Source of the DNA: Planctomycetales bacterium
GTDB taxonomy: Bacteria; 4484-113; JAFGCY01
Direction of reading: 5' to 3'
Length of the DNA stretch: 64,000 bases
Assembly: GCA_022646745.1 (NCBI GenBank)
Contig: CP060262.1
Location: 3,897,188-3,961,187 of the forward strand
Shown here piece by piece: positions 1,280 to 52,400 of the stretch. The stretch's first letter is position 1. Every line of letters starts with the position of its first letter. The notes under the pieces are model-generated. The model saw only the letters and a list, made by a program, of their open reading frames with translations, did no database searches and was not told the origin of the DNA. A program made the translations under genes and the position numbers.

Positions 1280-1360
1280 CTCTTGTCCGGCGGATGCGCC
1301 GTTTCACGCACCGGCCGGGGGAGAGAGTTATCAATTCGCCCGCACAACCGGGAGGTTGCC

Positions 1361-12460: not shown

Positions 12461-12522
12461 AGCAGGCGAACTGCTGTCTGCGCATTGCGCCGGTGTTGAT
12501 TAATCAGGTGATGGAACGCAGC

Positions 12523-12834: not shown

Positions 12835-12848
12835 GCGGTTCCTCCTTG

Positions 12849-14066: not shown

Positions 14067-14087
14067 TGCCTTTTTCTCCTTGCTTGA

Positions 14088-30911: not shown

Positions 30912-30984
30912 GACCTGATTCTAGCTCAGCGGGGCACTGTCCCTGAGCTTTCCCTCCCATTACATGACTGGATCACCAACAGTG

Positions 30985-33412: not shown

Positions 33413-33510
33413 GTTTCCCTGCCAGTCCCTGCAAAGATGCCCGTTCAGTTATTGCTCCGGGCAAACAATGGTTCAATTGTAAATCAGGACGCTGCCGGAC
33501 CGTCCCGGGT

Positions 33511-34692: not shown

Positions 34693-35888
34693 AGTCCCGC
34701 CTCCAGACCATATACCCAGACGCCTTGCCTCGCATGCCAGACCACTATGCCTCCTCCCGCAATCGCTGACATGTGATAGTCCTCGGAAAGTACGGGGCCA
34801 AACAGCGACTGCTGCCAGGCGATCCGATCGTCTGAAACCTCAAGCATGATGATGTCACTTACGAATGCTGATCCATCCTTGCCCGCAGGTAGCTCCTCGG
34901 CGGCAGGCAGGCCCACGAGAGCAGTCCCGGCTGCCTGGCCATCCGCCAGTGGCGTGCTGCCCAGCAGCAGCACGCGAGTCCCGGACTGCACCACATCAAG
35001 CACCTGCCCTGGCAGGTCCAGCGCGTCACTGTGAACCACCAGGCTGTCGTCAAGCAGGCCAAACACCCTGCCCCAGCGCCTGCCTCCCCAGCCAATGTTG
35101 CCAGTTCCGAACTGGAAGTCCTTGAATCCGCCGCTGTCAAGCGACTCCGTGCGCATGCTCGACTCCAGCGAGAAGCTGAGCTGTTGGTCCAGCAGCTGCA
35201 TACGGCCATCATCGCCATACACCAGCATCCGTCCGTCCGGCAGCACCGCCGCATGGTCCCCCCAGCGGGTGCCTTCCGGGCCGTTGATACTGTGCTTGAT
35301 GCCTTGGCTGTCCAGCCAAAGGAGCTCCCGGTCCGGCGTACGATACATCCACAGCAGGTCCAGCGGCAGCTGCTGCGGGTCAAATGGATCCAGCCAGGTG
35401 TCGTAGAGTTCTCCGTTGTCAGACATCCAGCACAAGCCGCCGCTGCTGTCCAGTCCGTAATCGAAGCGCCCGTCGGAGGTCCGCACTACTGCAGGCGCTG
35501 CGTCCGTCCCCGGCAGGTGCTCCAGTGCTTTCCACGGTTCGGGATGGAATTCCCAGGCCGGCTGCCCTTGCCTGTCCACTGCCCAAGCCTGGCCACCCAT
35601 GCCGGTGAATATCGTGAACCCGGGAAACTCGTAGCAGCGCCAGGCAATGTTCCAGCGCAGCCAGTCCGCATGCCAGATGTGCTGTCCCGTGGCATCATAG
35701 TGGGAGATGCCAAGGTTGACATCCTTGACATACAGGCCGCCCTTGTTGCCAACGACCACGGATGATTCGCCTGCTGCCGCTGGCAGGCTCCACTTCAGCT
35801 GCAGCGGATCATCCTGCGCCATCGCCACCCCGCCAGCCAGCAGGCATGCCAGCAAGGCCATAAGTCCCGTCACCCTTGTTCGTGTCAT
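34689..35888 (-). CDS. PQQ-like beta-propeller repeat exported protein, paralog 6 of 8
   Basis: Signal peptide ...LLACLLAGGVAMA; blade motif AWAVDRQGQPAW; stop overlaps next start (ATGA). Confidence 0.75.
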   Translation of the reverse strand: MTRTRVTGLMALLACLLAGGVAMAQDDPLQLKWSLPAAAGESSVVVGNKGGLYVKDVNLGISHYDATGQHIWHADWLRWNIAWRCYEFPGFTIFTGMGGQAWAVDRQGQPAWEFHPEPWKALEHLPGTDAAPAVVRTSDGRFDYGLDSSGGLCWMSDNGELYDTWLDPFDPQQLPLDLLWMYRTPDRELLWLDSQGIKHSINGPEGTRWGDHAAVLPDGRMLVYGDDGRMQLLDQQLSFSLESSMRTESLDSGGFKDFQFGTGNIGWGGRRWGRVFGLLDDSLVVHSDALDLPGQVLDVVQSGTRVLLLGSTPLADGQAAGTALVGLPAAEELPAGKDGSAFVSDIIMLEVSDDRIAWQQSLFGPVLSEDYHMSAIAGGGIVVWHARQGVWVYGLEAGL

Positions 35889-35941
35889 GGATGGATTGTA
35901 AGGCAGGGACGCTTACTATGCACAATCGCTGTTCTACCGGC

Positions 35942-37105
35942 TTATTGTTGGCTTCCTGATGAATCGACCGGATCGAGGCAGACCAAGGTTTCCGGCTTGC
36001 GCTCATAGACGTACAACCGGCCATCATAACCAGGCAGGTAGTTGCCATTGTGAGAAGCAGTCTTAGTCGAACTCCAGAGGAACCTGCCCTGTGGATCAAT
36101 GCAGCTCCACCGACTATCCCTGACGGTACTACCTGTTGTGAATCTCGATAAAAACATGCTGCGTCCAATACTCCAGTCAATTCGCCAGATAAAGACATAT
36201 CCATCCGGACTGATGTAATACGGCGAAGTGAACTCGTCGCCCATGTCATACACCCATTGTTCCTTGCCTTCCCGGTCATAGGCATGCAGGAACTGGCCAC
36301 TGCCGACAACGCACAGCGGGCTGCGTGGCTCCGTCAGCAGGCGTGGGAATTCCATGTCCAGAAGTGGAACCTGCCACTGCTCTTTGCCATCCCAATCAAG
36401 GCACAGCAGGTTTCCCTTATCGTCCAGCGTAACCAGCCTGTCACCCATGGACAGGGTGGAGAAGCAGCCCATGCGCTTCCAGAGCAGCTCTCCCTGCGGG
36501 CTGAGGCAATGCAACGAGCCGGACTGGCAACCAAGAGCAATTCGCTTGTCGTCATCTGCCCTTAGCAGGTAGCTGCCTGCGTCGCCGTTGAAGCGCCAGG
36601 CAGGCTGCAGCGCAGAGTCATATGCCTGCACGAACTGGCTGTTGTAGAGGATGACCGGATTGCCATCTAGGGAGCATGCGTCAAAGCGGTCACTCATGTT
36701 TACTCGCGGGGGCCAGCCGGATCCTTCCGGAATGCCGAGTTCGACATATTCATTGCCAGCATTGCCATCCAGCACCCAGGTCCGTCCGTCAGCGGCGACG
36801 ATGTAGCGTCCCTCACCGATCGGGACGAGCTGGTTGAGGCCCTGGCTCCTGAGGGCATCCGGCAGCAAAGGACTTCCGGATCCAGCGGAGCTGGCCTGCC
36901 CCAGGTCTACGCCGGAAAACTCACCAGCTGCTGAAACCTCTGCCATTCCCCTGCCGTGGTAAAGCCGCAGGCTGTTGTCAGGCAGCACTTCCATGCTGCC
37001 ATACAACCTGGTCTCATATGTGTGCTGTACGTTCTCCTCTTCCGCACGGGACATATCGCAGGCGGACAGGATCATTGCGCAAAGCAGCAGGGCGATGATC
37101 CTCAC
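35942..37105 (-). CDS. PQQ-like beta-propeller repeat lipoprotein, paralog 7 of 8
   Basis: Probable GTG start at 37105 (GGAG upstream, GTGA overlap with upstream stop) giving lipoprotein signal MRIIALLLCAMILSAC; blade motifs LHCLSPQGELLW, LLCLDWDGKEQW. Track ORF extends to 37138 (TTG). Confidence 0.7.
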   Translation of the reverse strand: MRIIALLLCAMILSACDMSRAEEENVQHTYETRLYGSMEVLPDNSLRLYHGRGMAEVSAAGEFSGVDLGQASSAGSGSPLLPDALRSQGLNQLVPIGEGRYIVAADGRTWVLDGNAGNEYVELGIPEGSGWPPRVNMSDRFDACSLDGNPVILYNSQFVQAYDSALQPAWRFNGDAGSYLLRADDDKRIALGCQSGSLHCLSPQGELLWKRMGCFSTLSMGDRLVTLDDKGNLLCLDWDGKEQWQVPLLDMEFPRLLTEPRSPLCVVGSGQFLHAYDREGKEQWVYDMGDEFTSPYYISPDGYVFIWRIDWSIGRSMFLSRFTTGSTVRDSRWSCIDPQGRFLWSSTKTASHNGNYLPGYDGRLYVYERKPETLVCLDPVDSSGSQQ

Positions 37106-38376
37106 TGGCCTGCTCCAATCACATAGCAGTCCAGCCAATCTCCATTGCTTATGTACACCCGGGAGCCGCTGACTGCCAGGCGAAACCTCACATTCCCGAT
37201 GTACGGGATGCTGATGCTGCCAAGTATCCGCTCATCACTGACGAGCTGTAACCTGCGGTCCGTGTTATAGCCGTAGAACCCCTGGCTTTTGAGGTACTGT
37301 GTCTTGCCGGGGAACAGGAAGCTGTCCAGTGGCTTGATGCTGTCACCGAGTTTGCGCAGGCTGCGAGCAATGTTGTCAGCATCCTGGGTCATCAATACGA
37401 AGCCGGCGTCACAGGGCTTCACTTCGTCAATCCGGCTGCTGATCGGTGCATGCTCCGCAATCTGCCGGCCCTGCAGGTCAAGGATTGCCAGGCTGGAATC
37501 ATTGAACAGCACGAGCAGGCGATTGCCGCCACAGAATGACTTATCAATCCTGACAGCGGTGGAGGGAATTGGAACCGTGAAGATCTGTGCGTCCTTGCCA
37601 TCCATTAGCTGGAAGCGATCCTCACATCGCAGCAGGGGCACCTCTCCTTCAGTCAGTCCAACCAGCTGGACCAGCTCAGGAGCTGGTGCCAGTGAAGCAT
37701 GCTCAACCGGCTTTGGCTCACTGAGCAATTCAGTGGACGGAACGGAGACGCTGCCATCCGGCCAGGCAGTTGTCATGTTGGCCCAGTTGATCACATAAGC
37801 CGCCTGCCCGTTGATTGTCATCCGGGAGTGCAGGTGCTCGATCCACGGGTCTGCTCCAGGGTTGACCGTCCAGCACAATTCTCCATCAGTCCTCAGGCCG
37901 TACAGCATGGAGCCATTCTGGCTGTATAACTCGGCAGTTGGCGCAGTTGCCAGTTTCAGTGGGTCGCTGAATTCGCGGGACTGCTCATCGTATGACCACT
38001 GCCTGTTCCCGGCTGCATCCACTGCATACATCCGGCCGTCAGTCAGGCTGATGTAGCAGTTGCCATCCTGCTCATGGACGCAGTCCTTCAAGTAGACTCC
38101 TGACTCGCGAAACGTCCAACGGACCTCTCCACTCTGTGGGTCGATCGAGATTACGCCTGCACTTATTCCACGGTTGTCCAGCAGGTACAGCCCGCCCTCA
38201 TTTCCAGCCTGCAGATTCATGTACTCGTAAGCCAAGGGGATCCGCCAGGCGTGTGTGAATGGGGATTGCTCGCGTCGGCCCTGCCCCAGGTACAGCGCTC
38301 CCGCCAGCCACAGCAGCAGGCAGGCCAGCATCGTGCCGGCAATCAGCCTGTGCTCGCGGGATGTCGCTTGCTGCAT
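37102..38376 (-). CDS. PQQ-like beta-propeller repeat protein with N-terminal membrane anchor, paralog 8 of 8
   Basis: Start set at ATG 38376 (track extension to 38472 overlaps upstream gene); TM LIAGTMLACLLLWLAGALYL; blade motifs MYAVDAAGNRQW, LYGLRTDGELCW. Confidence 0.7.
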   Translation of the reverse strand: MQQATSREHRLIAGTMLACLLLWLAGALYLGQGRREQSPFTHAWRIPLAYEYMNLQAGNEGGLYLLDNRGISAGVISIDPQSGEVRWTFRESGVYLKDCVHEQDGNCYISLTDGRMYAVDAAGNRQWSYDEQSREFSDPLKLATAPTAELYSQNGSMLYGLRTDGELCWTVNPGADPWIEHLHSRMTINGQAAYVINWANMTTAWPDGSVSVPSTELLSEPKPVEHASLAPAPELVQLVGLTEGEVPLLRCEDRFQLMDGKDAQIFTVPIPSTAVRIDKSFCGGNRLLVLFNDSSLAILDLQGRQIAEHAPISSRIDEVKPCDAGFVLMTQDADNIARSLRKLGDSIKPLDSFLFPGKTQYLKSQGFYGYNTDRRLQLVSDERILGSISIPYIGNVRFRLAVSGSRVYISNGDWLDCYVIGAGQ

Positions 38377-38399
38377 CTGCTGCAAGCATAGCGCAGAAG

Positions 38400-38795
38400 C
38401 TAGTGTTCCTCCCAGACGATCAGCGCCGCATCCGCCAGGTCGTTGTCTGGCATTCCGAACAAGCGCCGCCACATCTGCTTGAACTCGGCCTCGTCATGCG
38501 GCCACTGTTCCAGCCACTCCCTGAATTGCGGCCACTGGAACAGCGTCGGGATGTCCCCCACCCCGCGGCAGTAGTCGTGGATCATCTCCCAGCAGATCGG
38601 CACCACCGTGCCCGGCTTCTGTGCCGTGCTGCCGCGCATGAAATTCACCAGCACGCCGCGCTCGGGCTTGTCCTCGCCGCGCACCATCGCCACCCCGGTG
38701 CCCCGGTCCACGGCGTAGTAATGCGGCTCGATGTATACGATCTGCACGGCTAGGATGATAGCCGAGGGCGGCTGCTGGGAACCTCTGGCTTGCAC
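38400..38795 (-). CDS. hypothetical Trp-rich small protein, first gene of the minus-strand propeller operon
   Basis: 131-aa ORF (GTG start) ending 21 nt before paralog 8; no recognised domain. Confidence 0.4.
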   Translation of the reverse strand: MQARGSQQPPSAIILAVQIVYIEPHYYAVDRGTGVAMVRGEDKPERGVLVNFMRGSTAQKPGTVVPICWEMIHDYCRGVGDIPTLFQWPQFREWLEQWPHDEAEFKQMWRRLFGMPDNDLADAALIVWEEH

Positions 38796-38863: not shown

Positions 38864-40042
38864 ATGGATGGATTGCAGGAGCAGGCCGGTATCCGGCGAA
38901 AGGGCCTGACAATTCTGCCGGCCTGGCTGCAGGACAACCCCCTGCCCGCAATCTGGCAGCTGACCCTGCTGAAGCGCAGGCGCAAGCGCCCGATCTTCCA
39001 GTTCTACTCCGCCGCTGTGCTGTTCTTCCAGGTGCTGGCGCTGCTCTGTGTCCCGGCCTACCTGATTGACTGGTACACCAATGCCTACTTCCTCACCGAG
39101 CTGCTGATGGCGGAATCGCTTCTCTCATTCTTCTGGCTGCTGCTGGAATTCACGTCATGCCTGAACTTCGCCGGCAACCTGATGCGCAGCGAGACTTCCT
39201 CCACCTTCCCGATCATCGACGAGGCGCTGGCGGCCAGCAGCCTGCAGGACCGGGACTTCATCCTGGCAATGCTGCAGGCCAGCCTGCCGCGCCTGATGAT
39301 TCCATCCGCGCTGCTCTGTCTCGCGGTGGTGATGCTATTCCAGACTGACTTCCTGCTGTATTCATACGGGTACAACGGGCTTGGCATAGCACAGTGGCTT
39401 TCACTGACAACATTGTCAATGGTTTCGATGTCCGGCCTGCTGCTGCTGCACTTCGGCCTCGGGATGCAGCAGGAGAAACGCTTCGCCGCCAGCACCGGGA
39501 CAGTGATGGCCGGACTGGCCCAGCTGCTGACAATCGCCAGTTGGTTCCTGACCTACGACGAGGAGTGGATGACAGATTTCAGCAGCTACTGGCGCTACCA
39601 GTATTTCAACCCGCACCTGCTGGATCTCCAGAATTACTACTGCAATTCGCAGCTTGGGATGCTGCTGATCCAGTTCATGCTGGTGCTGCTGCTGCTGCAC
39701 CTGGCAACGCACAACGGATGGCTGCGCCGCCTGCTGCTGCTGGGCTGGCCGGCGCTCTGCGGCATCCTACTGACAACCTTCCTCCTCAGTCTGCAGTACA
39801 TCGATCCAGAGAATTTCTCCTACCTGACCGGACTAAGGTTCATCAGCCGCGCAGGCCAGCCGCTGTCCTTCGTCAACCTGGATGTGATATACATGCATTT
39901 TGTCGGTAACGACACCTCCGTGCAATCTGCCCATGTCGGCAGGCTGCAGGCATTGACGGTGCTGCTGCAGTTCGCATACGCGTTCACTTTCCTGCAGTTC
40001 GCCAGGAGAATGCTGTCCATCCATCGAAGGGGGACAGCATGA
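38864..40042 (+). CDS. polytopic membrane protein, family A paralog 1 (conserved N-terminal NPLP..W..L...R motif)
   Basis: ATG 38864 with AGGAGG upstream; N-terminal DNPLPAIWQLTLLKRRRKR followed by multiple hydrophobic helices. Confidence 0.7.
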   Translation: MDGLQEQAGIRRKGLTILPAWLQDNPLPAIWQLTLLKRRRKRPIFQFYSAAVLFFQVLALLCVPAYLIDWYTNAYFLTELLMAESLLSFFWLLLEFTSCLNFAGNLMRSETSSTFPIIDEALAASSLQDRDFILAMLQASLPRLMIPSALLCLAVVMLFQTDFLLYSYGYNGLGIAQWLSLTTLSMVSMSGLLLLHFGLGMQQEKRFAASTGTVMAGLAQLLTIASWFLTYDEEWMTDFSSYWRYQYFNPHLLDLQNYYCNSQLGMLLIQFMLVLLLLHLATHNGWLRRLLLLGWPALCGILLTTFLLSLQYIDPENFSYLTGLRFISRAGQPLSFVNLDVIYMHFVGNDTSVQSAHVGRLQALTVLLQFAYAFTFLQFARRMLSIHRRGTA

Positions 40043-41280
40043 TCAACAGGCTCATTGCTCATATCATGCGTATCACCCGCGGCTGGGTCACTGCCCTGCT
40101 GGATATCCGCCGCAATCCGTTGCCCGCGGCCTGGGGCATGTCCGAATCACGCGGCAATGCGGCCTACCTCAAGCGCTTCGCGATCGGGATGGGCCTGTAC
40201 GGCATTGCCAGCTGGCTTGGGATCATCGCGAGCGCTAGTTACCTGACCGGTGACCAGCTGGCCAACAACAAACAGAGCTTCGTGAACAACTACTTCTTCG
40301 AGCTGGAGGACCTTGGCAACTGGCTGCTGCAGCAGCCCGGCGCTGCCTGGTGCCTGCTGCTGGCCCTGGCCTGGCTGCTTGTAACTTTCCGCAAGGCAAT
40401 CACCACTTCGCTGGGCTTCCTCGACAGCGAACCACGCCAGCAGACGCATATCACCTATGACGACATGCTGGCCTGTTCGCAACTCAACGAGTACGAGGTG
40501 CTGCTCGGTGCGCTTTACTACTGTGTCCGCCTCGTGTTCCTGCCCCTGCTGGCATTCTCAATCTGTTGTGCCTATTCCACATACAGCTTCTTCGAGGCTG
40601 AGATTGCCGGCAATTTCAACGGCGGACTCGCCGGCCTGCTGGCGCACATGTTCGCTGCAGTGCCACTGCTGTTCACCTCCGGCATGCTGGCGGCAATCGC
40701 ATTGTTCCTGCTGACAATCAGCCTGAGCCTGAGCTCCCGCCAGCGTACCGCTCCGCAGGTCGGCGGCTTCCTGCACACCACGGTGCAGTTCCTGCTGATC
40801 GTGCTGGCAGCCTACCTGCTCTACTCGCAGTTCCAGTACTGGGGCTTCACGAATGACGCAGTGTTCCGCGATTTCGGCAACGTGATGTTCAGCATCAGCT
40901 TCCTGGTGACAACCCTGATGCTCTACCTCGCCCGGCGGCTGAACTGGCTGCGCATGCTGCTGCAGCAGGGCTTCCCGGTGCTGCTTGGAGCCTTCCACCT
41001 GTTCTGTGCACTGCCGCTGGCCTATGCCTATACACTGGACAGCGACTGGCTGAACATGCTCAGCATTGCGGCTGACGGCCTGCGTCCACTGAGCCTGTCA
41101 GCCACGGCGCTACAGGCCAGCTGGCTGCAGCAGATCCAACATCCCTACTGGGCGCGGGGCGACCGCGGCTTTGAGTACTACGCGATCGTCTCGCAGCTGA
41201 TCGTGCAGTTGGCCTACCTCGCCCTGTTCGCTGAGTTTGCCCGTGACGCAGTGCGCCGTCGCAAGTGGGGCGTGATGTGA
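40039..41280 (+). CDS. polytopic membrane protein, family A paralog 2
   Basis: ATGA overlap with previous gene; N-terminal RRNPLPAAWGM...; multiple TM helices. Confidence 0.7.
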   Translation: MINRLIAHIMRITRGWVTALLDIRRNPLPAAWGMSESRGNAAYLKRFAIGMGLYGIASWLGIIASASYLTGDQLANNKQSFVNNYFFELEDLGNWLLQQPGAAWCLLLALAWLLVTFRKAITTSLGFLDSEPRQQTHITYDDMLACSQLNEYEVLLGALYYCVRLVFLPLLAFSICCAYSTYSFFEAEIAGNFNGGLAGLLAHMFAAVPLLFTSGMLAAIALFLLTISLSLSSRQRTAPQVGGFLHTTVQFLLIVLAAYLLYSQFQYWGFTNDAVFRDFGNVMFSISFLVTTLMLYLARRLNWLRMLLQQGFPVLLGAFHLFCALPLAYAYTLDSDWLNMLSIAADGLRPLSLSATALQASWLQQIQHPYWARGDRGFEYYAIVSQLIVQLAYLALFAEFARDAVRRRKWGVM

Positions 41281-43913
41281 ATCAGGGCTGGATCGCTGCG
41301 TTTCGTGAGGCATGGCATAGCCCGCTGCTGGAGCTCTGGCAGCGGCAGGATTCACGGCGAAGCACCCGTGGTTTCTGGCTGTCCAGCCCGGGACTGCTGC
41401 TGCTGGCCACTCCGCTTGTAATCCTGCTCTACTGGCTTCTGGTCCGCCAGCTGGGCATCCTTGCACATGCAGCTGGCAATGAAGGCATGAACCCGATCCT
41501 CGCATCGGCAGTATTCTGGCTGGCAATCAATGCCAGCATCAAATACCTGGTCCTCATCGTTACCTTCATCTGCTGCGCCAGGCTGTATCGCGTGCTGGCG
41601 GACAGTGGCAGCCTGCTGGATGGAAGGAGCGGCAAGCGTGCACAGCTTGACAATGCAATGGCTGTCAGCATGCTGGATGACCGGCACCTGGTCGCCGCCC
41701 AGCACATCAGCAACTTCCGCCTGCTGTATCCATGGATCGTCCTGCTGTCCCTTTTGCTGGGCCTGCACCGGGTTGTGTGCGCATTTGGCCACGCCGCTGT
41801 CGAAGCCCCGGATGCCATCGGGCTGGCAGTCCGGCTTGTGCTTCATCCGCTTTGGTCCAGCCTGCTGGCGGCAGTGGCCCTGTTGATCCTCGGCAACTTC
41901 GCCATCGCGGCCGGCAGCGCAGCAGCAGCAAGCCGCCTGTTCCTGATTGGTGTTGCTGGGATGTCTGTCTGCCAGTTCGGCGTGGCGGCGACGCTCTACT
42001 ATTTCGCAACTGACAATTTCATTGGCATTGACGACTGCCTGGTCATGCTGCCAGCCCTGACGGGCCTGTTGCCCGGCCTGCTGCTGGTGTTCGTCGCCGG
42101 CTTCGCATCCAGATCCGCAGGCTTGCTTCGCATTTTTTCCAGCGGGCTGGGTATGATCCCACTCGCCGGCATTGCCCTGGCGGGCCTGCTCTGTGACAGG
42201 ATGTTCATGTTGAGTTTCAGCGACCAGAACATCGAGTCGGGCCTCTGCGTCTTCCAGGCCTGCGTGAACCTCCAGGCAATCTCGGTATTGCCTGTTCTGC
42301 CGGACACGCTCGAATTCATGGGCCTGGTTGGCAATCCATATGGCAGCCCGGATGCAGTGTTCCCGGGGATGATGCTCAGCTTTCTCGTCGGGATGCAGCT
42401 CCTGCTACTGCGTGTGTCCTCCCATTTTGCTACCAGCTGCCTTGCTGAGCGCCGCGCACGACAGGAATCCGCCAATGAATCCCCCCGAAGCACTGCAAGC
42501 AAGGCAAGGAAGCAATCAGGGAATCCTCAACGAGTAGATGCAGTGTTCGCTGTCCTGCTCGTCGGTATTCCACTGCTGCTGACTATGGCAACGATGATCT
42601 CCGCCAGGTTGATTCGTCCCCCATTGCTGGAGTCAAAAGATCCCTTCGAGCAATGGTTCCTGGACTGTTTCCAGCGCGGACAATCGCAGGCAGCATGGAC
42701 CAGCGGCCTGCGCAACGGCACGATGAGCCTGCGGATGTCGGAGGTCCTTGGACAGGATTATAGCTACACTGACGACCTGATCGACCAGTCAATCCACTAC
42801 CTGATGCAGGATGCTGCCGTCCGGCTCGAAACCGGCAATCCCGGCGATGTAGATCCCAGGCTGGCTCGCCTGTGCTTCATCGCCTATGAAACCAATCACT
42901 CCGTGGCTTATCCCCAGCTGACAGAGGAATGGAACAAGTTATATGAGCAGTATCCATGCCTGCAGCATGACCCCCAGGCGATTGCCATCATTGCCGAGAT
43001 CAGATTGCAGAAGCTTGGCTGGGAGGATTTCGCGCCGGCGTACATGAATACGCGGCCGGCCTTTTCGTCAGATCCGAAATCAGCTTTCTACAGCCGCGAC
43101 TGGATGCCGGAGGATGACTACCAGGCACTGAAGCAGCTTTATGCCTCAATTGACGATTCGCTCGCAGACAATGCATTTCCATACCATCTGGAGGTCTGCC
43201 GCCGTTTGGCAAATGACGACCTGAATGGGGCAATGGAAGTGATTCGTGGCAGCAGCAAAGCCCAGCTGGCAGACACGCGGCTCAATCTGCTCGCCGCGCT
43301 TGCGTTGGACGAACCAGAGAAATTTGATCCATTGAGCCGATACTGCCTCTACTGGCCGGGGTTCAATCGGATACAGAGCATGAATAATCAATATTTCTCA
43401 GACTTCTTTTCAGCCAGTCGCCAGCTTTGTAAGGAAAGCCGTACAGACGACCTGCAACTCCTGCATGACTACATCCTCCGATTCAGCAAGCTGCTTGGGC
43501 CATATGATGCCAACGAGATCCACCGAGCCATGCTGCAGGGGATTCCGGCAAACTACATTGGCATTGAAAGTAACCGTGCATTTAAGGATGCCAAGTCTGC
43601 CGCCAACAGCCTGCAGTACTCCGAGGCTCTATATGGTCCCAGTCCCTCAATCATCTATGGGAATAATCACACGGTGGGCATACAGTTGCTGGAAGGACAT
43701 CTGGCATTTACCCGCCCTCATCCGGATTCCGTTGCGATGTATACATATTTCCTGGGACTGAATGATGAGAAGCTCGTACTGGAAGCAATGACTCAGGCTG
43801 AGCAAAGGGAATATGAATCCATCATCTCACTTGACTGGACAGCACTGGATTGCTCACCGGCGGCGGACTCGACTGATTCCGCTGAGGAAGCAGGAGAATC
43901 GCAATCCCCTTAA
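41265..43913 (+). CDS. fusion protein: family A polytopic membrane domain + family B membrane-anchored extracytoplasmic domain
   Basis: N-terminal HSPLLELWQRQDSRRSTRGFWLSSPG and TM helices; internal anchor VDAVFAVLLVGIPLLLTMA followed by ~500-aa soluble region whose C-terminus (ISLDWTALD) resembles family B (IRNLDWTSLD); GTG start overlapping previous gene. Confidence 0.7.
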   Translation: MGRDVNQGWIAAFREAWHSPLLELWQRQDSRRSTRGFWLSSPGLLLLATPLVILLYWLLVRQLGILAHAAGNEGMNPILASAVFWLAINASIKYLVLIVTFICCARLYRVLADSGSLLDGRSGKRAQLDNAMAVSMLDDRHLVAAQHISNFRLLYPWIVLLSLLLGLHRVVCAFGHAAVEAPDAIGLAVRLVLHPLWSSLLAAVALLILGNFAIAAGSAAAASRLFLIGVAGMSVCQFGVAATLYYFATDNFIGIDDCLVMLPALTGLLPGLLLVFVAGFASRSAGLLRIFSSGLGMIPLAGIALAGLLCDRMFMLSFSDQNIESGLCVFQACVNLQAISVLPVLPDTLEFMGLVGNPYGSPDAVFPGMMLSFLVGMQLLLLRVSSHFATSCLAERRARQESANESPRSTASKARKQSGNPQRVDAVFAVLLVGIPLLLTMATMISARLIRPPLLESKDPFEQWFLDCFQRGQSQAAWTSGLRNGTMSLRMSEVLGQDYSYTDDLIDQSIHYLMQDAAVRLETGNPGDVDPRLARLCFIAYETNHSVAYPQLTEEWNKLYEQYPCLQHDPQAIAIIAEIRLQKLGWEDFAPAYMNTRPAFSSDPKSAFYSRDWMPEDDYQALKQLYASIDDSLADNAFPYHLEVCRRLANDDLNGAMEVIRGSSKAQLADTRLNLLAALALDEPEKFDPLSRYCLYWPGFNRIQSMNNQYFSDFFSASRQLCKESRTDDLQLLHDYILRFSKLLGPYDANEIHRAMLQGIPANYIGIESNRAFKDAKSAANSLQYSEALYGPSPSIIYGNNHTVGIQLLEGHLAFTRPHPDSVAMYTYFLGLNDEKLVLEAMTQAEQREYESIISLDWTALDCSPAADSTDSAEEAGESQSP

Positions 43914-43934
43914 CATGCTCGTCTGTGGGCGGGA

Positions 43935-45344
43935 TTGAATGCCGGGCAGCCCTCGGCTATGATCAAGGAAGAGTACCGGAGATGGCTGGAGCCATCGTAT
44001 CCGGGTGGGAGCAGTATGGCGGTTCGACAACATGAACCTGAAGCAAAGCTGGACGGAGCTGTCCGGCCTGCTGCTGCGCCAGCAAAATTCCCCTCTTCAC
44101 TGCGGCAGGAAAGTGGGAAAGCAGGCAGCTGGCTCGGAGCTGCCCTTGCCATCCGCCAGAATCCATTGCTGAATCTCTGGATCCTGCAGGAGAGGCGCAG
44201 GGCGGAATCCAGAAGCTTCTGGCTGTCAAACCCGGCGCTGCTGGCGGGAACATCAATTGTCAGCGTGCTCGCCTGCATCATACTGGTCCGGCAGTTACTG
44301 GCACTTGTCGAGGCCCGGACCGCCGGTGCAGTCAACCCGATGCCGGCCTCAGCCGCCTTCTGGACTGCAGTCAATGCGATCCTCTGGCTGGCGATAATCT
44401 ACTTCGGCATGCTCTCCATCGGGCGGATCTTCCTCGCGATGCGCAATTCAGTCGCGCTACTGGAGACCGGCCAGGGCAACCAGCGCCTGCGGCTCGATGA
44501 CAACCTCGTGATCACGGAAATGGGCAGCCACCAGATCATCATGGCCCAGATCGCCGACAACCTGCGCCTGGTGCTGCCGGCCAACATCCCGCTGACCCTG
44601 TTGCTCGGGCTGCAGTCCCAGCTCAGCGGCTATGCAAGAATCCTTGACAACCTGCCAGGCGCGATGGACAGCCTGCAGAACCTGCTGCTGATTCCCCTGC
44701 TGTCGATAATCGGCAGCATCCTTGGCACTGTGCTCCTGGGCGCAATCCTGATCGGGGCCGGCCTGCTGGCTGACAGCACCCGCCTGCAGGTCGGGGCGGC
44801 GGTCGGTGTTTTACTGATCCAGGCCTGGCTGTTGTTCCTGATGGCAACCGGCAGGGAGGTATTCAATCTAGGTATGGTTGAGGGCAGCGGCTGGGTGATC
44901 TCAGCGCTTGGGCTGTTCCCCCTGCTTGTAATGATGCTGCCGGTTTTCCTCGCTGGCTTCAGCCCCTTGTTTAGGCGTATCCTGGCAGGCGGACTGATCC
45001 TCTGGATGGGTTTTGCCCTGACCCTGCTGTATGGCATCTGCCTGTTGTCAGACCTGCGCATCTGGCTGGCAGAACCGAATGCTGTCGGGATGGGCCTGCA
45101 GGTCGGAAAGCAGAGCTTGCAGGTCTTCAGTTGCACGCCCCTGACAGGGATTGTCTACCAGCACTTGCAGGCGGTCATCCTCGGCAACCGGCAGGATCCT
45201 GCATTCTTCCTGAGTGTCTGGCAACCTGTCTACACCTATAGCGTCCCGCTGGCAGGATTCCTTCTGCAGGCAGCCTGCATCACCGGAGCCCTGCGCTTTG
45301 CGCTCTTGATGATGGACAAACGGAGGCTTGGCAGCCATGACTGA
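43935..45344 (+). CDS. polytopic membrane protein, family A paralog 4
   Basis: Motif IRQNPLLNLWILQERRRAESRSFWLSNPA then TM helices; start uncertain (TTG 43935 per track; ATG 43959 or ATG 44016, the latter with GGGAG upstream). Confidence 0.65.
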   Translation: MNAGQPSAMIKEEYRRWLEPSYPGGSSMAVRQHEPEAKLDGAVRPAAAPAKFPSSLRQESGKAGSWLGAALAIRQNPLLNLWILQERRRAESRSFWLSNPALLAGTSIVSVLACIILVRQLLALVEARTAGAVNPMPASAAFWTAVNAILWLAIIYFGMLSIGRIFLAMRNSVALLETGQGNQRLRLDDNLVITEMGSHQIIMAQIADNLRLVLPANIPLTLLLGLQSQLSGYARILDNLPGAMDSLQNLLLIPLLSIIGSILGTVLLGAILIGAGLLADSTRLQVGAAVGVLLIQAWLLFLMATGREVFNLGMVEGSGWVISALGLFPLLVMMLPVFLAGFSPLFRRILAGGLILWMGFALTLLYGICLLSDLRIWLAEPNAVGMGLQVGKQSLQVFSCTPLTGIVYQHLQAVILGNRQDPAFFLSVWQPVYTYSVPLAGFLLQAACITGALRFALLMMDKRRLGSHD

Positions 45345-46764
45345 CAACCATTCGGCCATGCCAGTCGAACACTCACCTGCACCTGGTCCTCCGCGGCGCT
45401 TCCTCAGGTTCGACCGTGCACTCAGCCTGCTGCTGTTTGGGCTGCCCGCATTGCTTGCATTCACAGTCTCACTTACTGCAGTTACGGTGCCTGTTGTTCA
45501 TTTCAACAGCGGTGATGAGTTTGCCGACTGGCTGTTCAATGCCGCCCTGCAGGCCCAGCATGATGCATGCTGGCAGGGTGTGAAGGCGAGCCGGGCTGCG
45601 GATAACTGGCTTCCGGAGAGCTACTATTTCAGGTCAAATGCATACTATCGGGAAAGCGTCCTCTTCGGCAACAAGCTGGCAGACGCGATCCAGCAGCAGC
45701 TGGATCTTGACCCGCATGATCCGCGGGTGATCTGGCTGGCTGCAGCTGGAATGCCCATTGATTATCGCGATTATGACAACAGCTTGCAGACAAAGTCGCG
45801 TTTCCTTCTCGAGCAGGATGCAGGGGGGATGCTGGACCGCCAGGGCCTGGAACTGCTGGCATATTTCATCAACCAGGTCGGACCGTTTGAACTGGTTGAA
45901 CAGGAACGCTGGCGGGGACTTAACATTTCCTACTTCGACCTCGGCGATCCATCACAATCTGCCCTGACAGCCGAAGTCCGTGAGCAGGTGACCGATATTC
46001 TGCGGCGGGTTGACAGTCTGCCTCCCGGCAATGCCCAGCACCTTGAACTGCGGTTCACTCAGCTGATGAACAACGACGACTTTGCCGAGGCCCTGGCACT
46101 GCTTGGCCGGTATCCCGGGCTCGAGGCAGCGCCCAGTGACGTTGGCATGCTTGCCAGCCTCGGACTGCAGGAACCGGACGGCCTGGATGACATAACGCGT
46201 GCCCAGCTGCAGTTCTTCGGGCTTGCCAACTGGAACAACACCCTGCGCATGGACTACCAGAAAGTGCAACAGGCCAGCCGTGAGTTGCTGGCAAGCGGCA
46301 GCCTTGACAAGCTTCAGCAGCTCCACGAATTCCTCTGGAAACTCGGAGGGATGGGCAGCCCGGGCGACCAGCTTGGGCACACAGCTGAAATGCTGTCTGC
46401 CTTGCCACCATCTGTCCTGCATGACCCTGCCAACCAGGAATTCCGACTTTCACAGCAGGACATATATGCGCTGACCTCCAATTCGTGGACGGCTAATGAC
46501 CCAGGCCTGCTGCAGCAGGCTGTCCTGCTCCTCGATTACCAACTCAGCGGAGAAAGGCTCGGTCTGTATGGACCGAACCCCATGTACCAGGATTACTACA
46601 CTTCACAGCCAACTCGTTCCAGGATAATCGAACAACTTGGCCCCAATGCTGCAGAACAGTTTGAGCGGATCCGCAATCTCGACTGGACATCCCTTGACCT
46701 CAGCTCAGCCCAGCCTGCTGACTTCGTTGATCCAGCTGAACAGGCCGCCTCGACTGATACATGA
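45337..46764 (+). CDS. bitopic membrane-anchored protein, family B paralog 1
   Basis: ATG 45337 with GGAGG upstream, overlaps end of previous gene; single N-terminal anchor RFDRALSLLLFGLPALLAFTV then ~430-aa W/Y-rich domain. Confidence 0.7.
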   Translation: MTDNHSAMPVEHSPAPGPPRRFLRFDRALSLLLFGLPALLAFTVSLTAVTVPVVHFNSGDEFADWLFNAALQAQHDACWQGVKASRAADNWLPESYYFRSNAYYRESVLFGNKLADAIQQQLDLDPHDPRVIWLAAAGMPIDYRDYDNSLQTKSRFLLEQDAGGMLDRQGLELLAYFINQVGPFELVEQERWRGLNISYFDLGDPSQSALTAEVREQVTDILRRVDSLPPGNAQHLELRFTQLMNNDDFAEALALLGRYPGLEAAPSDVGMLASLGLQEPDGLDDITRAQLQFFGLANWNNTLRMDYQKVQQASRELLASGSLDKLQQLHEFLWKLGGMGSPGDQLGHTAEMLSALPPSVLHDPANQEFRLSQQDIYALTSNSWTANDPGLLQQAVLLLDYQLSGERLGLYGPNPMYQDYYTSQPTRSRIIEQLGPNAAEQFERIRNLDWTSLDLSSAQPADFVDPAEQAASTDT

Positions 46765-48179
46765 GACAATCAGCAACGGGGATGGATACAGCAGGCACAC
46801 AACCTGGAGCGAGGAGCCGCCCACGCTGGCAGCTGATAGACCGCGCGCTGGATCTGCTGGTTGTCGGGCTGCCCCTGCTGCTGGCGCTTGCCTGTGTGAT
46901 TGCCAGTTACGTCGTCAAGCCCTACCGCATGGATACCGGAGATCCCTACCTGAACTGGTATGGCAACCAGCTGATGGACAGTGCCGACCAGGTGCTGGCA
47001 ACGGATCCGCTCCTGCCGGATTACTACAGCACAGGCGACTACTATCTGTTGCCTGATTTCCGCAAGCGCTTCGAGGAAGCACGAACCTCTTTCAGTGGCG
47101 ATCCACGCTACTGGATGGAGTATGCCGATCTGACACGCGCCGAGATCTGGTTCGGAAGTGGTGACAACTATTCCGAACAGGACTCGGAAGCGGCTTATGA
47201 GGCAGTGATGCGTGAGGGCCTGTCCAGCCCCGGCGCCAGCCCTGAAATGTTCATCCCGCTTGAGTGCCGCCCGATCGAGACCTCAGTGCTGGCGGACGGT
47301 GTGACCCGCGGCAACAAGGAAGGCCGACCGAATTTCCTCTGGAACCATCCGGAAGAAGTGACAGCAATGCTTGAGCAGGCCGGACGGCTGCCGGTGCAGG
47401 ATACCGTCAGCCGCCTGCTGCAGGCAACATACTGGAGCTGCGGCGGGGAGTACGGGCGCGCCCGTGAACAGCTGCTGGCAATCCGGGACCAGCCGGGCCC
47501 TTCCCTGCCTGACATGAATGAGCTGATGATCAAGTCGGCAGCCAGACCAAACACGGCGGTCATGGCCAGCCGGGGCTGGTCCATGCAGTATCCGTCCAGC
47601 ATTTACGTGGTGAATTCTGACCTGCGCAGCGGACTGGACGAGCTGGCGGAACAGGCCTGGCTGGCCGGAGACTACGAGGTGATTGACATCCTGCGCCAGT
47701 CCATCATCGATGGCAGGGGCGCTTCCGGCACGATCCTCGGCCAGCTGATGACGACTGTCAACCTCGGCAAGGTTGACAGCCGCATCTACAAGGTCACTAC
47801 CGACCCTGCTGAACTGTCAATGATGCTAGAGCTGCGTGCCCGCAAGAATGTGTGGCGAGACAAGGTCCGCTCAACAATCGGGCGGGAACTCAGTCCCTGG
47901 GTGGTCGGACGCTGCACGCTGGAAGGTGCCCTCAGCGGTGGACGGGGCTTTCACAGCGGATACGGTATTGCCTATGGCCGTCTGCTTCAGGATGAGTATG
48001 CCGACCTGCTGGGCATCCAGCCCCAGTGGGATGCGGTTGCGAATTTCAGTTACAGCAAATTGGCCTTCCCAGACGGCTGGACACCATCTGAATCGGACCT
48101 GCGGATTGCCGAGGGAGAAATTGCCAACAATCCCGGCGAGCGCCTGTACCGCGAGGTTTCCGACGGTGAGCAACCGTGA
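46761..48179 (+). CDS. bitopic membrane-anchored protein, family B paralog 2
   Basis: ATGA overlap; anchor IDRALDLLVVGLPLLLALACVIA paralogous to preceding gene. Confidence 0.7.
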   Translation: MRQSATGMDTAGTQPGARSRPRWQLIDRALDLLVVGLPLLLALACVIASYVVKPYRMDTGDPYLNWYGNQLMDSADQVLATDPLLPDYYSTGDYYLLPDFRKRFEEARTSFSGDPRYWMEYADLTRAEIWFGSGDNYSEQDSEAAYEAVMREGLSSPGASPEMFIPLECRPIETSVLADGVTRGNKEGRPNFLWNHPEEVTAMLEQAGRLPVQDTVSRLLQATYWSCGGEYGRAREQLLAIRDQPGPSLPDMNELMIKSAARPNTAVMASRGWSMQYPSSIYVVNSDLRSGLDELAEQAWLAGDYEVIDILRQSIIDGRGASGTILGQLMTTVNLGKVDSRIYKVTTDPAELSMMLELRARKNVWRDKVRSTIGRELSPWVVGRCTLEGALSGGRGFHSGYGIAYGRLLQDEYADLLGIQPQWDAVANFSYSKLAFPDGWTPSESDLRIAEGEIANNPGERLYREVSDGEQP

Positions 48180-49384
48180 GTGCCAACTGGACCAGCGCAA
48201 TCCGTGGCCTGCGTGACAATCCCCTGCCGGCACTGTGGCAGCTGCAGGAACTGCGCCAGCACGGGCAGCGCAGCCGCTGGCTGTCCAGCCCCGGCTATAT
48301 GCTGCTTGCCATCCTGGTCAGTGCGCTGGCCTGTTACCTGCTGCTGCTGCAACTCGGAATGGCAGGTGCGGTCTGGCAGGAGGGAGCGCACCCGGTGATT
48401 CGCCACAGCCTGCGCGGGATGGGCTTTGGCGTGTCCCTGGCTTTCACCGGAGCCATCTCCTTTCTACTGGCAATGGCCCGGCTGCACCATGGAATCCTGT
48501 TCTGCGGCAGCCTGCTGGCAATGCGGGACAGCCGCCGGCGCTGGGCCTTTGATGAGGTTGTGGCATCAACTGAGCTTGGCAACCGGGAGATCATCGCCGC
48601 GGCGATCTGGCATTCGCTGCGCCGCGTGATGCCACCACTCGCACTCAGCCAACTGGTGTTTTCGGTGATGTCCGGCATCTGGGTGGCTGACATGCTGCAT
48701 GACCACTCCCTCCCGGATGCAGCATGGCGCTGGCTGCTGCCCCTACTGTTCCTGCTGGGCATGCTGCTGCTGTCCACGCTGGCTGTCGCCACCCTTTGCG
48801 CCCTCTCGATCTCCACCAGCAGTCCTGACCAGCACCCGGCCCAGCCAATGCTGCTGGCAGCGAATGCCTACCCGCTGCAACTGCTGATGCTGGCGGCCCA
48901 GCTTCTGTTGCCGATCTGGCGTCCAGATGAGTATTACACCGAAGCCCCATCTTTACTGGTGGTGAATCCACTGGATGTCGTCTCGCTGGGGTTCGGAATG
49001 CTGATGCCCGTCATCATGGTCCTGCTGCTGGAACTGATGTGCCGGGCTGGCAACACCCGAAGTTATGCGGCCTTTGCCCTGCTGCCGGTGGTCGGCCTGC
49101 TGCTTGCCTTTGGCTGGGGCGTGATGTCAATTGTCTATGACGAGCTGCTGTCCTCCACATATCCGCTGGATGGACCCCTTTTCAGCCTCGCATCCAACTG
49201 GTGCATCTTCCCGTTGTACCTCAGCTATCCACTGCAGGACCTGGCCCGCAACGGTATTCCAGGCTATGCGATTCACTGGATGAGTCTCTGCCTGTTTCCC
49301 GTACATTTGCTCCTGCTCCTAGGTGCCCTTTACAAATTTGCGCAACGAGCAGCCGGGAACCTGGACCGCGAACTGCGGGTCTGA
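48176..49384 (+). CDS. polytopic membrane protein, family A paralog 5
   Basis: GTGA overlap; N-terminal RDNPLPALWQLQELRQHGQRSRWLSSPG; about 8 predicted TM helices. Confidence 0.7.
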   Translation: MSANWTSAIRGLRDNPLPALWQLQELRQHGQRSRWLSSPGYMLLAILVSALACYLLLLQLGMAGAVWQEGAHPVIRHSLRGMGFGVSLAFTGAISFLLAMARLHHGILFCGSLLAMRDSRRRWAFDEVVASTELGNREIIAAAIWHSLRRVMPPLALSQLVFSVMSGIWVADMLHDHSLPDAAWRWLLPLLFLLGMLLLSTLAVATLCALSISTSSPDQHPAQPMLLAANAYPLQLLMLAAQLLLPIWRPDEYYTEAPSLLVVNPLDVVSLGFGMLMPVIMVLLLELMCRAGNTRSYAAFALLPVVGLLLAFGWGVMSIVYDELLSSTYPLDGPLFSLASNWCIFPLYLSYPLQDLARNGIPGYAIHWMSLCLFPVHLLLLLGALYKFAQRAAGNLDRELRV

Positions 49385-49476
49385 ACCAGCGCTTCTCCCG
49401 GGATTGTGGCGGGAACCACTGCTCCGGGTTAGAATCAAACGGCTGAAATCTGTTTCGATACTTGGGGGTATCGGAT

Positions 49477-52400
49477 ATGCGAACTGGTACTGCAGGCCAT
49501 AAAAGAATGTGGCCAATTGTCGTGCTCGCCCTTGCATTGAGTGCCTGCGGCGGCAACATGGGTTCGGGCATTGTCCCTGGACCGGCACAGATAAGAAATG
49601 AAACCGCACCGGTCTATCGCAATGCGATTGGCGAATCCGAAATCGGCACACTGAATGACTGGCAGCGAGCGCTGCTTGCCGACCCAGGCTGGAATGAAGC
49701 CCCTGCTCCGGTTGAGCGGGATGGGTTTAACGCGCTGCCTGCTCCGAGCACTGAACTGCTATTGGAGCTGCTCCAGCAGCAGGCAGTTGCAGGCATAGAT
49801 CAAGCTGGATTCGTGCGTGGCACTTCCGCGCTTGACCCGGTTCCGGTCGGCGCGTACAAGCCTGGCGATGTTGATGTTAATGGCATTCCCGCTTTCGGCT
49901 GCAATGCCGACCCGGCAATGATCGACATTTACCACATTGAGGATGTGATTGGCAATTACAGCCTGGATGCTGATCTGCAATTGCAGTCACCAGTTGGTTA
50001 CGTTATGTATGGCGTACCTACAGTCAACCATTTCAACAAGCATGGAGACTCAGCCTCGATTCCGGCTGCCATTTCACAGGTGCTGGCCCAGCAGGACGAC
50101 CAGTCCCAGAACATTGCGATCAGCAGCATTGCTTATCTCGCTGCGCAGGATTTCTCCGTCTCACCCGGTGAGGGCAGTGGCCCTGGAGGCCCGAATGACT
50201 GCGGCCTGGCGGCATACAGTATCCGCAATGCCTACTGGATGAGCTGGAATGAGAAATCCTTCGCTCTGCCTTCGGGCCAGACCACTGCGCTATTCAACAT
50301 TTTGCCTGGTCCGTTGGATGAAGCACAGACCGGGCTAACCAACCCCATCACTTCCACCACGGCGGGCCAGCAGCCCTTCCTGTTCGGTTCCTGGATCGAG
50401 CATTATGGCAAGTCCTACATCGTCGGCATAGAATCTGCCAACAGCGGTTGCCAGATGTTCGATGACATTGCCAACACCGAATGGCGCCACAGGGTGATCG
50501 GTGGCGACCAGCCCTACCCGAACATCCTGCACAACCCGCTGTACGGCATCCTTGCGGAACGCTGGCAGCAGTCAGCCATTCCGGATACGGAGGAATGGAA
50601 CAGCCAGCTCGGCTGGCCCGTGGCCCGTCCCTTTGCCTACAACAATGGAGCGCAGCTGCTCAGTGCGGACGGCCCCTACTATGCATTTGGACAGTTCTTC
50701 GAGCGGGGATTCATCTGGTGGCTGGACTACGACCAGCAGGCCAATCCGACAGCAAGCGACCGGGCAATCCTCTACACTTTCGATGGCAGCAACACATTCT
50801 GCGATGGCACGTTTACGCGCAGCTACCCTTACCTGCATTACAACAATCAAGCAAGTGCCCCGCTTGCCGCTGACCTGCTGGTGGACCAGTATCTCGCGGG
50901 TGGCTCCGACTGGCGCCAGATCAGCCAGCAGCCTGATGGCCGCCTGCTGCGGGTTCCCTGGACTGACGAGGGAGCCAGCCAGCGCAGTGCCACTGTCCGC
51001 GCCCTTGCCAACCCCAGTGGAGGGGTGACCATCAACGGTGACGACATCGGCCATCCGGAATGGGGCAAGGGCCTGTACCGCAGCTGCACATGGCTGTGGC
51101 AGGATGGCACTGTCACCCCTGCCGGCATGGATTACGACCCGGCGCAGTTTGACATGCAGCACACCTACCTTGGCGACGGAGCTGGCATTGAAGCCATCCG
51201 CCGCATCAGGGCGCAGGTGGTGGATGCCGACGGCAACATCGCCTATGTGGACAGCCTGCCGCTGCAGATCGGCGACGGCAGCCCGGGGGCCGCCCCGGCA
51301 CTGAGCGTGCTGCGGGCTGACAACGGCATGTTCCCGGATGGCTACGAAGCCCTGATTGATGATCTCGGTGAACTCGGCCTGCCCTTCAGCACCCGCAGCT
51401 GGGAAGCGGGTATCGAACAGCAACTCGCAGACGAGGGCTGCCAGCTGGCAATCTGGTACGACGGCGGACCGGGCAGCCAGGCTGAACTTGGAAACACACA
51501 GGCCGGCTGGACCGCTGGGGAAAGGGACTCACTGATCGGCCTGCTGGAGAAGGGCATTGACGTGCTGCTGCTCAGCCAGGATGTCGCTGACAACCCGGAC
51601 CCCAACCCGGGAAACTCATGGACAGACCGCTTCGGTATGCAGCTGCTGCCCGGCGGCCAGTCCGGCACCGGCCTGCAGGGTGCATGGGGGCAGTTGCCCG
51701 GTGGCCGGATTGCCGATTTCGGCGGCGGATGGCTTCCCTCGTCCGCCCAGTACATGTCTGCCGCTTCACTGGCTTCGCTCGAGGCGATCTGTGGCGCCGT
51801 GGAACGCGGCTCCGCCGATGATGGTACCCAGCCGATGCTTGTGTCAGTCGACCCCGCCCTGCCCGTCTGCGGCATTGGCAGCGCCACCAACTGGCCGGGA
51901 GCCAGCCCCGCATTCACTGCGGGCAGCTTCCTGTCTTCAACATCCACAGGTCCGGCCCAGGCCCTGCTGAGCTGGGGCAGCAGCGCAGCTCCGCATTCCA
52001 TTGATGGCAACCTGCCTGACCCGGTCATCGCCGATGGCAATGCGCACCTGTGGGTCTATGGCCTCAGCTGGGCAGCCAGCTCTCCCGTAGGCTACCAGGG
52101 CAGCGATCGCGTGCCCGTTGCCAGGAGCAGGATGCTTCAGAATATCCTGAGCTGGCTGGACAATGATTCCCGCTACTTTGACCCGCTGCGACCACGTGGC
52201 TATTCAGGTGAGCCGGAAATCCTCTCGGTCACGCCATACCTGATCCAGTCAGACGGGCAGATCACTCCCGGCTCGACTTCACATACTGGAGTTGACTATC
52301 CGGACCCGAGCGGCAGCGATGTGCTGCGCAGCAGCCCCAACCTGCCGGATGAGAAGCACCTCGTTGTCAGTCCGGAGCATGACTCGGATGAGGACGGCAT

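Follow-up and report, generated by a model that had tools for sequence, protein, structure and literature searches.

The permeases of ATP-binding cassette (ABC) exporters of the ABC-2, or type V, kind (Wzm, TarG, KpsM, NosY, PmtD and CcmB, and the transmembrane (TM) domains of ABCA and ABCG proteins) share a fold made up of an N-terminal interface helix and a TM1-TM6 bundle, and many ABC-2 families have a conserved cytoplasmic coupling region after TM2 (E-x-E-x-G-T-x-E-x-L-L-x-x-P). In the known structures of the type V exporters Wzm, TarG and NosY, the N-terminal interface helix and the TM2-TM3 coupling helix contact the nucleotide-binding domain (NBD). NosDFY(L), KpsMT-KpsE and GldA/F/G combine a permease with a large periplasmic or membrane-anchored partner, and NosDFYL has a lipoprotein client nearby. 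Here, a 64-kb window (the whole stretch of DNA analysed, 64,000 nucleotides (nt) of contig CP060262.1 from a Planctomycetales bacterium, to which all coordinates refer) was examined for an operon of seven + strand genes, called g1 to g7. It may represent an array in which a two-component inner-membrane module of comparable architecture has been multiplied, the module pairing a polytopic membrane protein with a bitopic one; by the same analogy, the giant lipoproteins encoded after the operon could be likened to the NosDFYL client.

The likeness has limits. The polytopic family differs from ABC-2/type V permeases in having no significant sequence or profile similarity to them, eight predicted TM helices instead of six, no adjoining or fused ATPase, and motifs of its own at the N terminus (W..RDNPL..W) and C terminus (FARDAxRRRKW). 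The bitopic partner, predicted to be all-alpha and without a Pfam family, is not like NosD, Wzz/PCP or GldG (ABC_transp_aux), and the ATPase subunit is not in the locus. CcmB and the bitopic tetratricopeptide repeat (TPR) protein CcmI/CcmH of cytochrome c maturation system I resemble the module in architecture only, as no homologues of CcmA, C, E or F and no haem-handling motifs are present here. The type VII permeases FtsX, MacB and LolC are also membrane proteins with a periplasmic domain, and transmit force to the periplasm; in the polytopic family, neither an FtsX profile match nor a four-TM core with a large TM1-TM2 periplasmic domain was found. The operon is laid out as follows (aa, amino acids; ORF, open reading frame):

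38864-40042, + strand: g1, polytopic paralog of 392 aa, with no adjoining bitopic partner
40039-41280, + strand: g2, polytopic paralog of 413 aa
41265-43913, + strand: g3, polytopic-bitopic fusion of 882 aa, likely start GTG 41277
42525-43910, + strand: bitopic-type part of g3 (anchor TM and ecto-domain), ending SLDWTALD
43935-45344, + strand: g4, polytopic paralog, longest ORF 469 aa
45328-46764, + strand: g5, bitopic partner, probable start ATG 45337, ending NLDWTSLD
46761-48179, + strand: g6, second bitopic protein, a divergent family member with profile-level homology only
48176-49384, + strand: g7, polytopic paralog of 402 aa, the copy whose structure was modelled
48188-48238, + strand: N-terminal family motif of g7 (W5, N15 P16 L17, W21), predicted cytoplasmic amphipathic helices
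48524-48607, + strand: cytoplasmic loop between TM2 and TM3 of g7 (aa ~117-144; D126 is near-invariant), aligning locally to ABC-2 'RErE.GT.e.LL.sP'

An earlier, sequence-only reading of this DNA had described a translationally coupled seven-gene operon with mostly 4-nt junctions, and the seven ORFs were indeed found to be real, tightly packed and largely coupled. Start/stop overlaps of 4 nt occur at g1/g2, g5/g6 and g6/g7, and also at g2/g3 given the start at GTG 41277, which is the deposited g3 start (protein P0008). The g4/g5 overlap is 8 nt with ATG 45337, and g3/g4 is the sole separated junction (21-102 nt, varying with the choice of start). AGGAGG is located 8 nt 5' of the g1 ATG. The probable g4 start is ATG 44016, giving 442 aa; the deposited g4 protein (P0009, 392 aa, MLNLWILQ...) begins inside the W..NPL..W motif and thereby truncates the conserved N-terminus. 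The N-terminal motif and the orthologue in a related genome (GCA_041395205.1, called L001; L-numbered loci denote family or related contexts) place the true g4 start upstream of the deposited one, at ATG 44016 or earlier. Scans for consensus promoters and terminators were at chance level and gave no information on the limits of the operon.

Among the seven proteins, BLASTP revealed significant paralogy between the polytopic members (g3 N-half and g4, 7e-22; g4 and g7, 2e-14; g3 N-half and g7, 6e-13; g1 and g7, 4e-7; g1 and g2, 7e-5). A single family profile matched all five (g1, g2, the N-half of g3, g4 and g7), and an N-terminal W-x(9-10)-NPL-x3-W was found in each of these proteins. The five polytopic proteins with a common N-terminal motif that the sequence-only reading proposed were thus supported as to motif and paralogy, except that g3 is not simply polytopic but a fusion. 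In an exhaustive HMMER search, in which an 8-sequence profile was run against 1.84 billion cluster representatives, the family proved to be rare: 111 representatives reached E<=1e-3, of which 64 also reached E<=1e-10. Most members were ~400 aa long and matched the profile end to end, while a few were fusions of 770-880 aa. Family motifs were W..A.RGLRDNPL...W....RR....W.RSPGL at the N terminus, L-D-D-M-L-A-x-S after the second TM helix and AEFARDA(I/V)RRRKWG at the C terminus. The window copy nearest to the family consensus is g2 (C-terminal FAEFARDAVRRRKWG), which is also the most constrained copy, with a ratio of nonsynonymous to synonymous substitution rates (dN/dS) of 0.065. Source databases name family members only 'hypothetical protein', the designation under which a protein identical to g7 is deposited. 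A word-indexed homologue search was nearly blind here, also with alignments, and hydrophobic words probably saturated the candidate list; it found four proteins for g7, and beyond self-matches and close orthologues its yield was limited to two distant orthologues of g7 (37-41% identity). A scan of GTDB genomes with a single peptide pattern, its matches confirmed against g2, yielded 2 loci only.

No known domain or catalytic motif could be recognized, in line with the sequence-only reading. For the seven proteins, Pfam and NCBIfam gave no match below E = 0.01, and PADLOC gave none for these proteins, for the two downstream giant lipoproteins (big1 and big2) or for a small upstream ORF. Signatures of intramembrane proteases (CPBP/Abi, site-2, rhomboid and PrsW; EExxR/HxxxN, HExxH, Ser-His) were absent from the polytopic family, with no conserved His/Glu/Ser set in the TM helices, and the bitopic protein had no profile match to the periplasmic adaptor families PCP/Wzz-KpsE, GldG/ABC_transp_aux or NosD. 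Confident profile matches to a known transporter or protease family were not obtained.

The bitopic proteins g5 and g6 each consist of one N-terminal TM segment and a tail of ~415 aa, and have in common the anchor motif D-R-A-L..LL..GLP.LLA; homology between the two was visible only by iterated or profile search. Residues ~421-882 of g3 were homologous to g5 (4e-17, BLASTP). In g3, a cytoplasmic linker rich in K/R connects the polytopic domain (aa 1-~400) to a TM anchor (aa ~421-450), whose GxP.LL motif recurs in the anchors of g5 and g6, and a periplasmic all-alpha domain follows. Since g3 is a fusion of both families, the operon holds five polytopic and three bitopic-type domains, a count in which the sequence-only reading, with two bitopic proteins, had overlooked the C-half of g3. 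Of the second signature assigned to these two proteins, the anchor motif stood; the C-terminal 'DWT.LD' is common to g3 and g5, not to g5 and g6, as g6 has 'DGWTPSESD' instead. Conserved motifs of the bitopic family were GD(P/E)..DW after the anchor, DPR.W, LSGGR and a C-terminal (L/F)D(W/Y/F)(T/S).L..W. The ~415-aa tail of the partner would be all-alpha and partly TPR-like, and is predicted to be periplasmic.

Further contexts were retrieved by exact protein look-up, by the genome scan and by searching metagenomes with a DNA pattern for the C-terminal motif, and were annotated with local hidden Markov models (HMMs) of both families. Adjacency or fusion of a polytopic and a bitopic member was observed in the window and in L001, L002/L007 (L007 being a UBP7 relative), L005, L006, L008 (the same locus as L022, L025, L027 and L029), L009, L010, L013, L014, L023, L024, L026 and L030, and the pattern recurred in at least nine independent loci. 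In L006, L008, L009, L013, L014, L023, L024, L026 and L030 the bitopic gene lies directly 3' of the polytopic one, with 4-nt overlaps in L009, L026 and L030 and two bitopic partners in L023, and in L010 the families are fused as in g3. Every relative with the canonical form had the two families adjacent or fused, and only a more divergent subgroup (L011/L012, L019 and L020/L021, the last two being one locus) was without a bitopic partner. Proteins that bind each other typically betray it in the genome by natural fusion, by conserved neighbourhood of their genes and by coupled translation. All three are found here, and we infer from gene arrangement that the two families form one two-component module whose parts bind each other. 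The genome-neighbourhood comparison proposed in the sequence-only reading brought out a pairing that it had not itself described: two uncurated membrane-protein families were correctly recognized, while the g3 fusion and the logic of the module were missed.

Within the partner-less subgroup, the array of L020 (3115-7821) differs in style from that of the window: three polytopic paralogs stand in tandem, the first two are separated by a gene for a soluble helical protein of 253 aa, and the bitopic family is not represented. A hydantoinase/oxoprolinase-type gene (ASKHA ATPase superfamily) was considered as a partner, as it lies beside polytopic paralogs in L012 (1479-3338) and L013 (16607-18895), unrelated contigs in which the paralog is partner-less; it was rejected, with no recurrence in L019, L020 or L021. 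In L010 (5084-9852), the fused member (P0056) divergently adjoins a gene for an ECF sigma factor (Sigma70_r2/r4_2), and a 587-aa protein with no Pfam match is also encoded beside it.

The fold of the polytopic protein was approached by modelling g7 with AlphaFold2 on an 8-sequence alignment (predicted local distance difference test score, pLDDT, 68; predicted template modelling score, pTM, 0.73). The model consisted of two short N-terminal helices and eight long helices, the second and third of which were separated by another short one (125-132). Its ten best matches were all ABC-2/type V exporter permeases, with scores of 10.4 (PmtD), 10.2 (TarG), 10.1 (Wzm), 10.0 (NosY), 9.4 (a second Wzm), 9.4 (KpsM), 8.8 (Cdr1), 8.7 (ABCA4), 8.2 (Rv1217c) and 8.2 (CcmB), and the matches to bacterial single-domain permeases aligned 190-225 residues, or ~77-88% of the target. 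The next fold class (Xkr proteins and G-protein-coupled receptors) scored 7-8. When helices were assigned from the model, Lys and Arg (K+R) over the 64 members amounted to 16.3 in cytoplasm-assigned loops against 1.5 in periplasm-assigned loops, a positive-inside bias that predicts eight TM helices with both termini in the cytoplasm. The topology check likewise gave a single N-terminal TM in g5 and g6. The basic linker of g3 would orient its anchor helix from inside to outside and so put the large domain into the periplasm, in agreement with a cytoplasmic C terminus.

The cytoplasmic elements of the polytopic family were the most conserved and the periplasmic loops the least. Mean relative entropy by column was 2.15 in the C-tail, 1.75 in the N-terminal helices and 1.57 in the TM2-TM3 loop, compared with ~0.9-1.2 in the TM helices and 0.4-0.75 in the periplasmic loops. 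Positions W5, N15, P16, L114, D126 and A392 were near-invariant, and within predicted TM helices wide conservation of polar residues was limited to Gln235 and a Gln near 381 in the last helix. Because conservation is strong at both of the elements by which type V exporters touch their NBD, the pattern points to a conserved cytoplasmic partner. Altogether, the modelled ABC-2-like fold is moderately supported, while membership of the ABC-2 superfamily is unproven.

On these grounds, components A (g1, g2, the N-half of g3, g4 and g7) would be very divergent relatives, or at least structural analogues, of ABC-2/type V permeases, having in-plane cytoplasmic N-terminal helices (W..NPL..W), a conserved TM2-TM3 loop where ABC-2 proteins have their coupling helix, and a C-tail that is basic. 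Components B (g3 C-half, g5 and g6) would contribute one membrane helix and a ~420-aa all-alpha, partly TPR-like periplasmic domain. A and B may form a stoichiometric complex, and paralogous modules could homo- or hetero-oligomerise in the manner of ABC-2 permeases. The conserved face on the cytoplasmic side would dock a protein whose gene lies elsewhere, a shared ABC ATPase being the most plausible one, and the work of this protein would be passed to the periplasmic domain for handling of envelope cargo. This reading, in which divergent ABC-2-fold membrane subunits are paired 1:1 with periplasmic helical adaptors and served by an ATPase in trans, is put forward tentatively, at slightly less than an even chance; the function of the module is unproven.

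Several results weigh against it. ABC-2 permease genes normally adjoin their ATPase genes, and no ABC ATPase was detected within ~10 kb of any of ~20 family loci (~250 kb of context). No sequence or profile method supported ABC-2 membership: Pfam, its ABC2 models included, gave no match for the 64 family members even at E<=10, and PDB sequence searches with profiles of either family gave nothing significant (the nearest entry was PmtD, at E of only 1.4-2, and an A4 profile gave nothing). Foldseek of the g7 model against PDB returned nothing at E<0.48, although ABCG25 and NosY were the highest-probability rows of the non-significant list and also had its best TM-scores. Profile comparison with ABC-2 and FtsX models was similarly without significant match; in hhalign of the 64-member alignment against E. 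coli YbhR, YbhS, YhhJ and RbbA-C, the single local match (E 0.025, probability 2%) was not significant. It placed the family loop 'R....LDDmLAvS.Ls..Eil.G' on 'RErE.GT...Ll-vsP.T..Ei..gK', co-linear through TM3 to a conserved Pro, and this placement in itself speaks for the ABC-2 reading. Finally, the idea that the cargo in this clade could be the co-located giant lipoproteins is a guess from synteny, a big1/big2-like gene following the g7 orthologue in L001, L002 and L005; they accompany the operon only in this clade, being absent from L006, L008, L009, L013 and L014. That the ABC-2 likeness is an artefact of a moderate-quality all-helical model, with the family representing a new fold or an unrelated class of transporter or enzyme whose mechanism could not be deduced from known systems, is considered unlikely.

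The ATPase question was addressed by searching every ORF of the window and of the ~20 family loci with a Walker-A and LSGGQ regular expression and with an HMM derived from eight NBDs. The operon itself was negative, as the sequence-only reading had stated, and the only NBDs found were unrelated ones, in the ABC_membrane-fused half-transporters at 6204-9811 of the window and in L010, where one lies beside a BPD_transp_1 permease. In no examined locus did an ATPase adjoin, or occur fused to, a polytopic gene, genome-wide ATPases lying beyond the scope of the 64 kb. Absence of an adjacent ATPase is therefore a trait of the family and not peculiar to the window operon. Such a trait would also be expected of an ABC-2-like fold that works with no ATPase at all, as a passive or proton-motive-force-linked scaffold, a flippase or a signal-transmitting anchor for the periplasmic domain, its cytoplasmic face binding a non-ABC partner or itself (N-terminal helix against C-tail). 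In keeping with this, the acidic/Gly-Thr half of the ABC-2 coupling signature (Glu, Gly and Thr) is not conserved and only L-D-D-x-L is kept, and the N- and C-terminal family motifs have no counterpart in the aligned E. coli ABC-2 proteins. However, the conservation at both NBD-contact elements fits an NBD partner equally well, and literature searches on NBD-less ABC-2 permeases or UBP7 biology returned nothing relevant and no precedent for such a machine. An ATPase-free mode of action is regarded as rather unlikely, and docking of an ATPase encoded elsewhere is kept as the working interpretation.

The operon has the following neighbours:

28504-38472, - strand: array of eight beta-propeller proteins (BamB/PQQ-like), of which several have lipoboxes; divergent from the operon
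38400-38795, - strand: small conserved ORF between the propellers and g1, listed at 131 aa (~115 aa in L001), with no family match
49507-53574, + strand: big1, giant lipoprotein with lipobox LALSAC, syntenic with the operon in relatives
54019-59040, + strand: big2, giant lipoprotein with lipobox VAASC, directly after the operon in L001

The divergent orientation of operon and propeller array agreed with the sequence-only reading, though a small minus-strand ORF intervenes. Its counterpart in L001, a gene of 115 aa in the corresponding position, is 95% identical, and Pfam gave no match for the ORF. For the last propeller ORF (37102-38472), the start as listed is probably too far upstream. Lipoboxes were present in big1 and big2, consistent with the two giant lipoproteins claimed downstream; both are rich in Gly, Asp and Ser, and by way of relatives they are 38-40% identical to each other, with no Pfam or PDB sequence match and no detectable domain. 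In L001, big2 is apparently split into two ORFs (11651-14515 and 14272-16770), and long antisense ORFs inside big2 of the window (for example, 55747-58923, - strand) look like GC-rich artefacts. Two further large secreted-type proteins are encoded at 24987-28493 and 1283-5950, one of 1168 aa with Peptidase_M6 catalytic and Big_7 domains and the other of 1555 aa with PKD repeats. Elsewhere the window carries ordinary chromosomal genes, among them a 2-oxoglutarate dehydrogenase operon, ABC half-transporters and a histidine kinase.

Comparison with L001 showed a sharp change in divergence across the locus. Flanking proteins (the small ORF, an NrtR-like regulator and a phosphonate-binding protein) were 93-95% identical, with dN 0.03-0.05 and dS 0.26-0.50, and big2 was 85-88% identical, whereas g3 to g7 showed 35-53% protein identity, with dN 0.42-0.78 and dS of about 1 or more. 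L001 lacks g1, g2 and big1, and its propellers are unrelated copies. At the DNA level (the region of window 38864-53574 against L001 3058-11357), identity was 88% up to 38860, at most 67% or undetectable over the operon (g3-g7), and 84% from 53624. As dS is raised as well as dN, replacement by a divergent allele (cassette exchange) is indicated and not merely fast evolution, so that the operon, together with big1, would behave as a divergent cassette exchanged between conserved flanks in an envelope-protein island. Relative to L007, the operon proteins were 82-95% identical, and dN/dS values of 0.07-0.25 indicate purifying selection on the operon genes, strongest on g2. Between neighbouring genes of these two loci, propeller copies included (window 28504-38472 against L007 1-8434), dS varied from 0.06 to 0.98, a mosaic that suggests recombination; the propeller at 35942-37138 had no close counterpart in L007.

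L007 also has an extra pair of polytopic (459 aa) and bitopic (481 aa) genes between g2 and g3, bounded by a direct repeat of ~40 nt (g2 3' end/g3 start) at 11213-11254 and 14240-14281. The window keeps a single repeat copy at 41261-41292, which creates the g2/g3 overlap, and a whole module has therefore been gained or lost by recombination. A search for direct repeats within the operon found only Leu-codon-rich and paralog-motif repeats. The array as a whole may likewise be gained, lost and swapped as a cassette. Gain or loss of modules between close relatives, the steep drop in identity together with raised dS, and the variability of the neighbouring envelope proteins would all suit a locus concerned chiefly with variable immunity, defence or surface variation (for example, against membrane-targeting toxins or phage), with paralogs diversified by recombination. 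Such a role, which is compatible with any of the mechanisms above, is nevertheless very unlikely, given that selection is purifying and not diversifying, that PADLOC was empty, and that in other lineages the two-gene module stands alone among housekeeping genes.

The locus thus defines two families without a Pfam, NCBIfam or PADLOC entry, tied into one module by natural fusion and gene pairing, and it shows cassette-like replacement of envelope genes between close uncultured genomes (labelled UBP7/Planctomycetales). If the ABC-2 assignment fails, two lineage-restricted families with no assigned function remain. A bolder proposal, which we consider improbable as it stands, is a new class of envelope machine, in which an ABC-2-fold protein without a dedicated ATPase (none, or one encoded in trans and shared by paralogs) would drive a periplasmic helical arm, the modules being duplicated, fused and exchanged together with the giant surface lipoproteins that they serve. 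If the ABC-2 fold is true, the polytopic family would be a permease lineage without an accompanying ATPase gene in any examined locus, and the type V fold may then work without a dedicated NBD, or one ATPase may serve many permeases.

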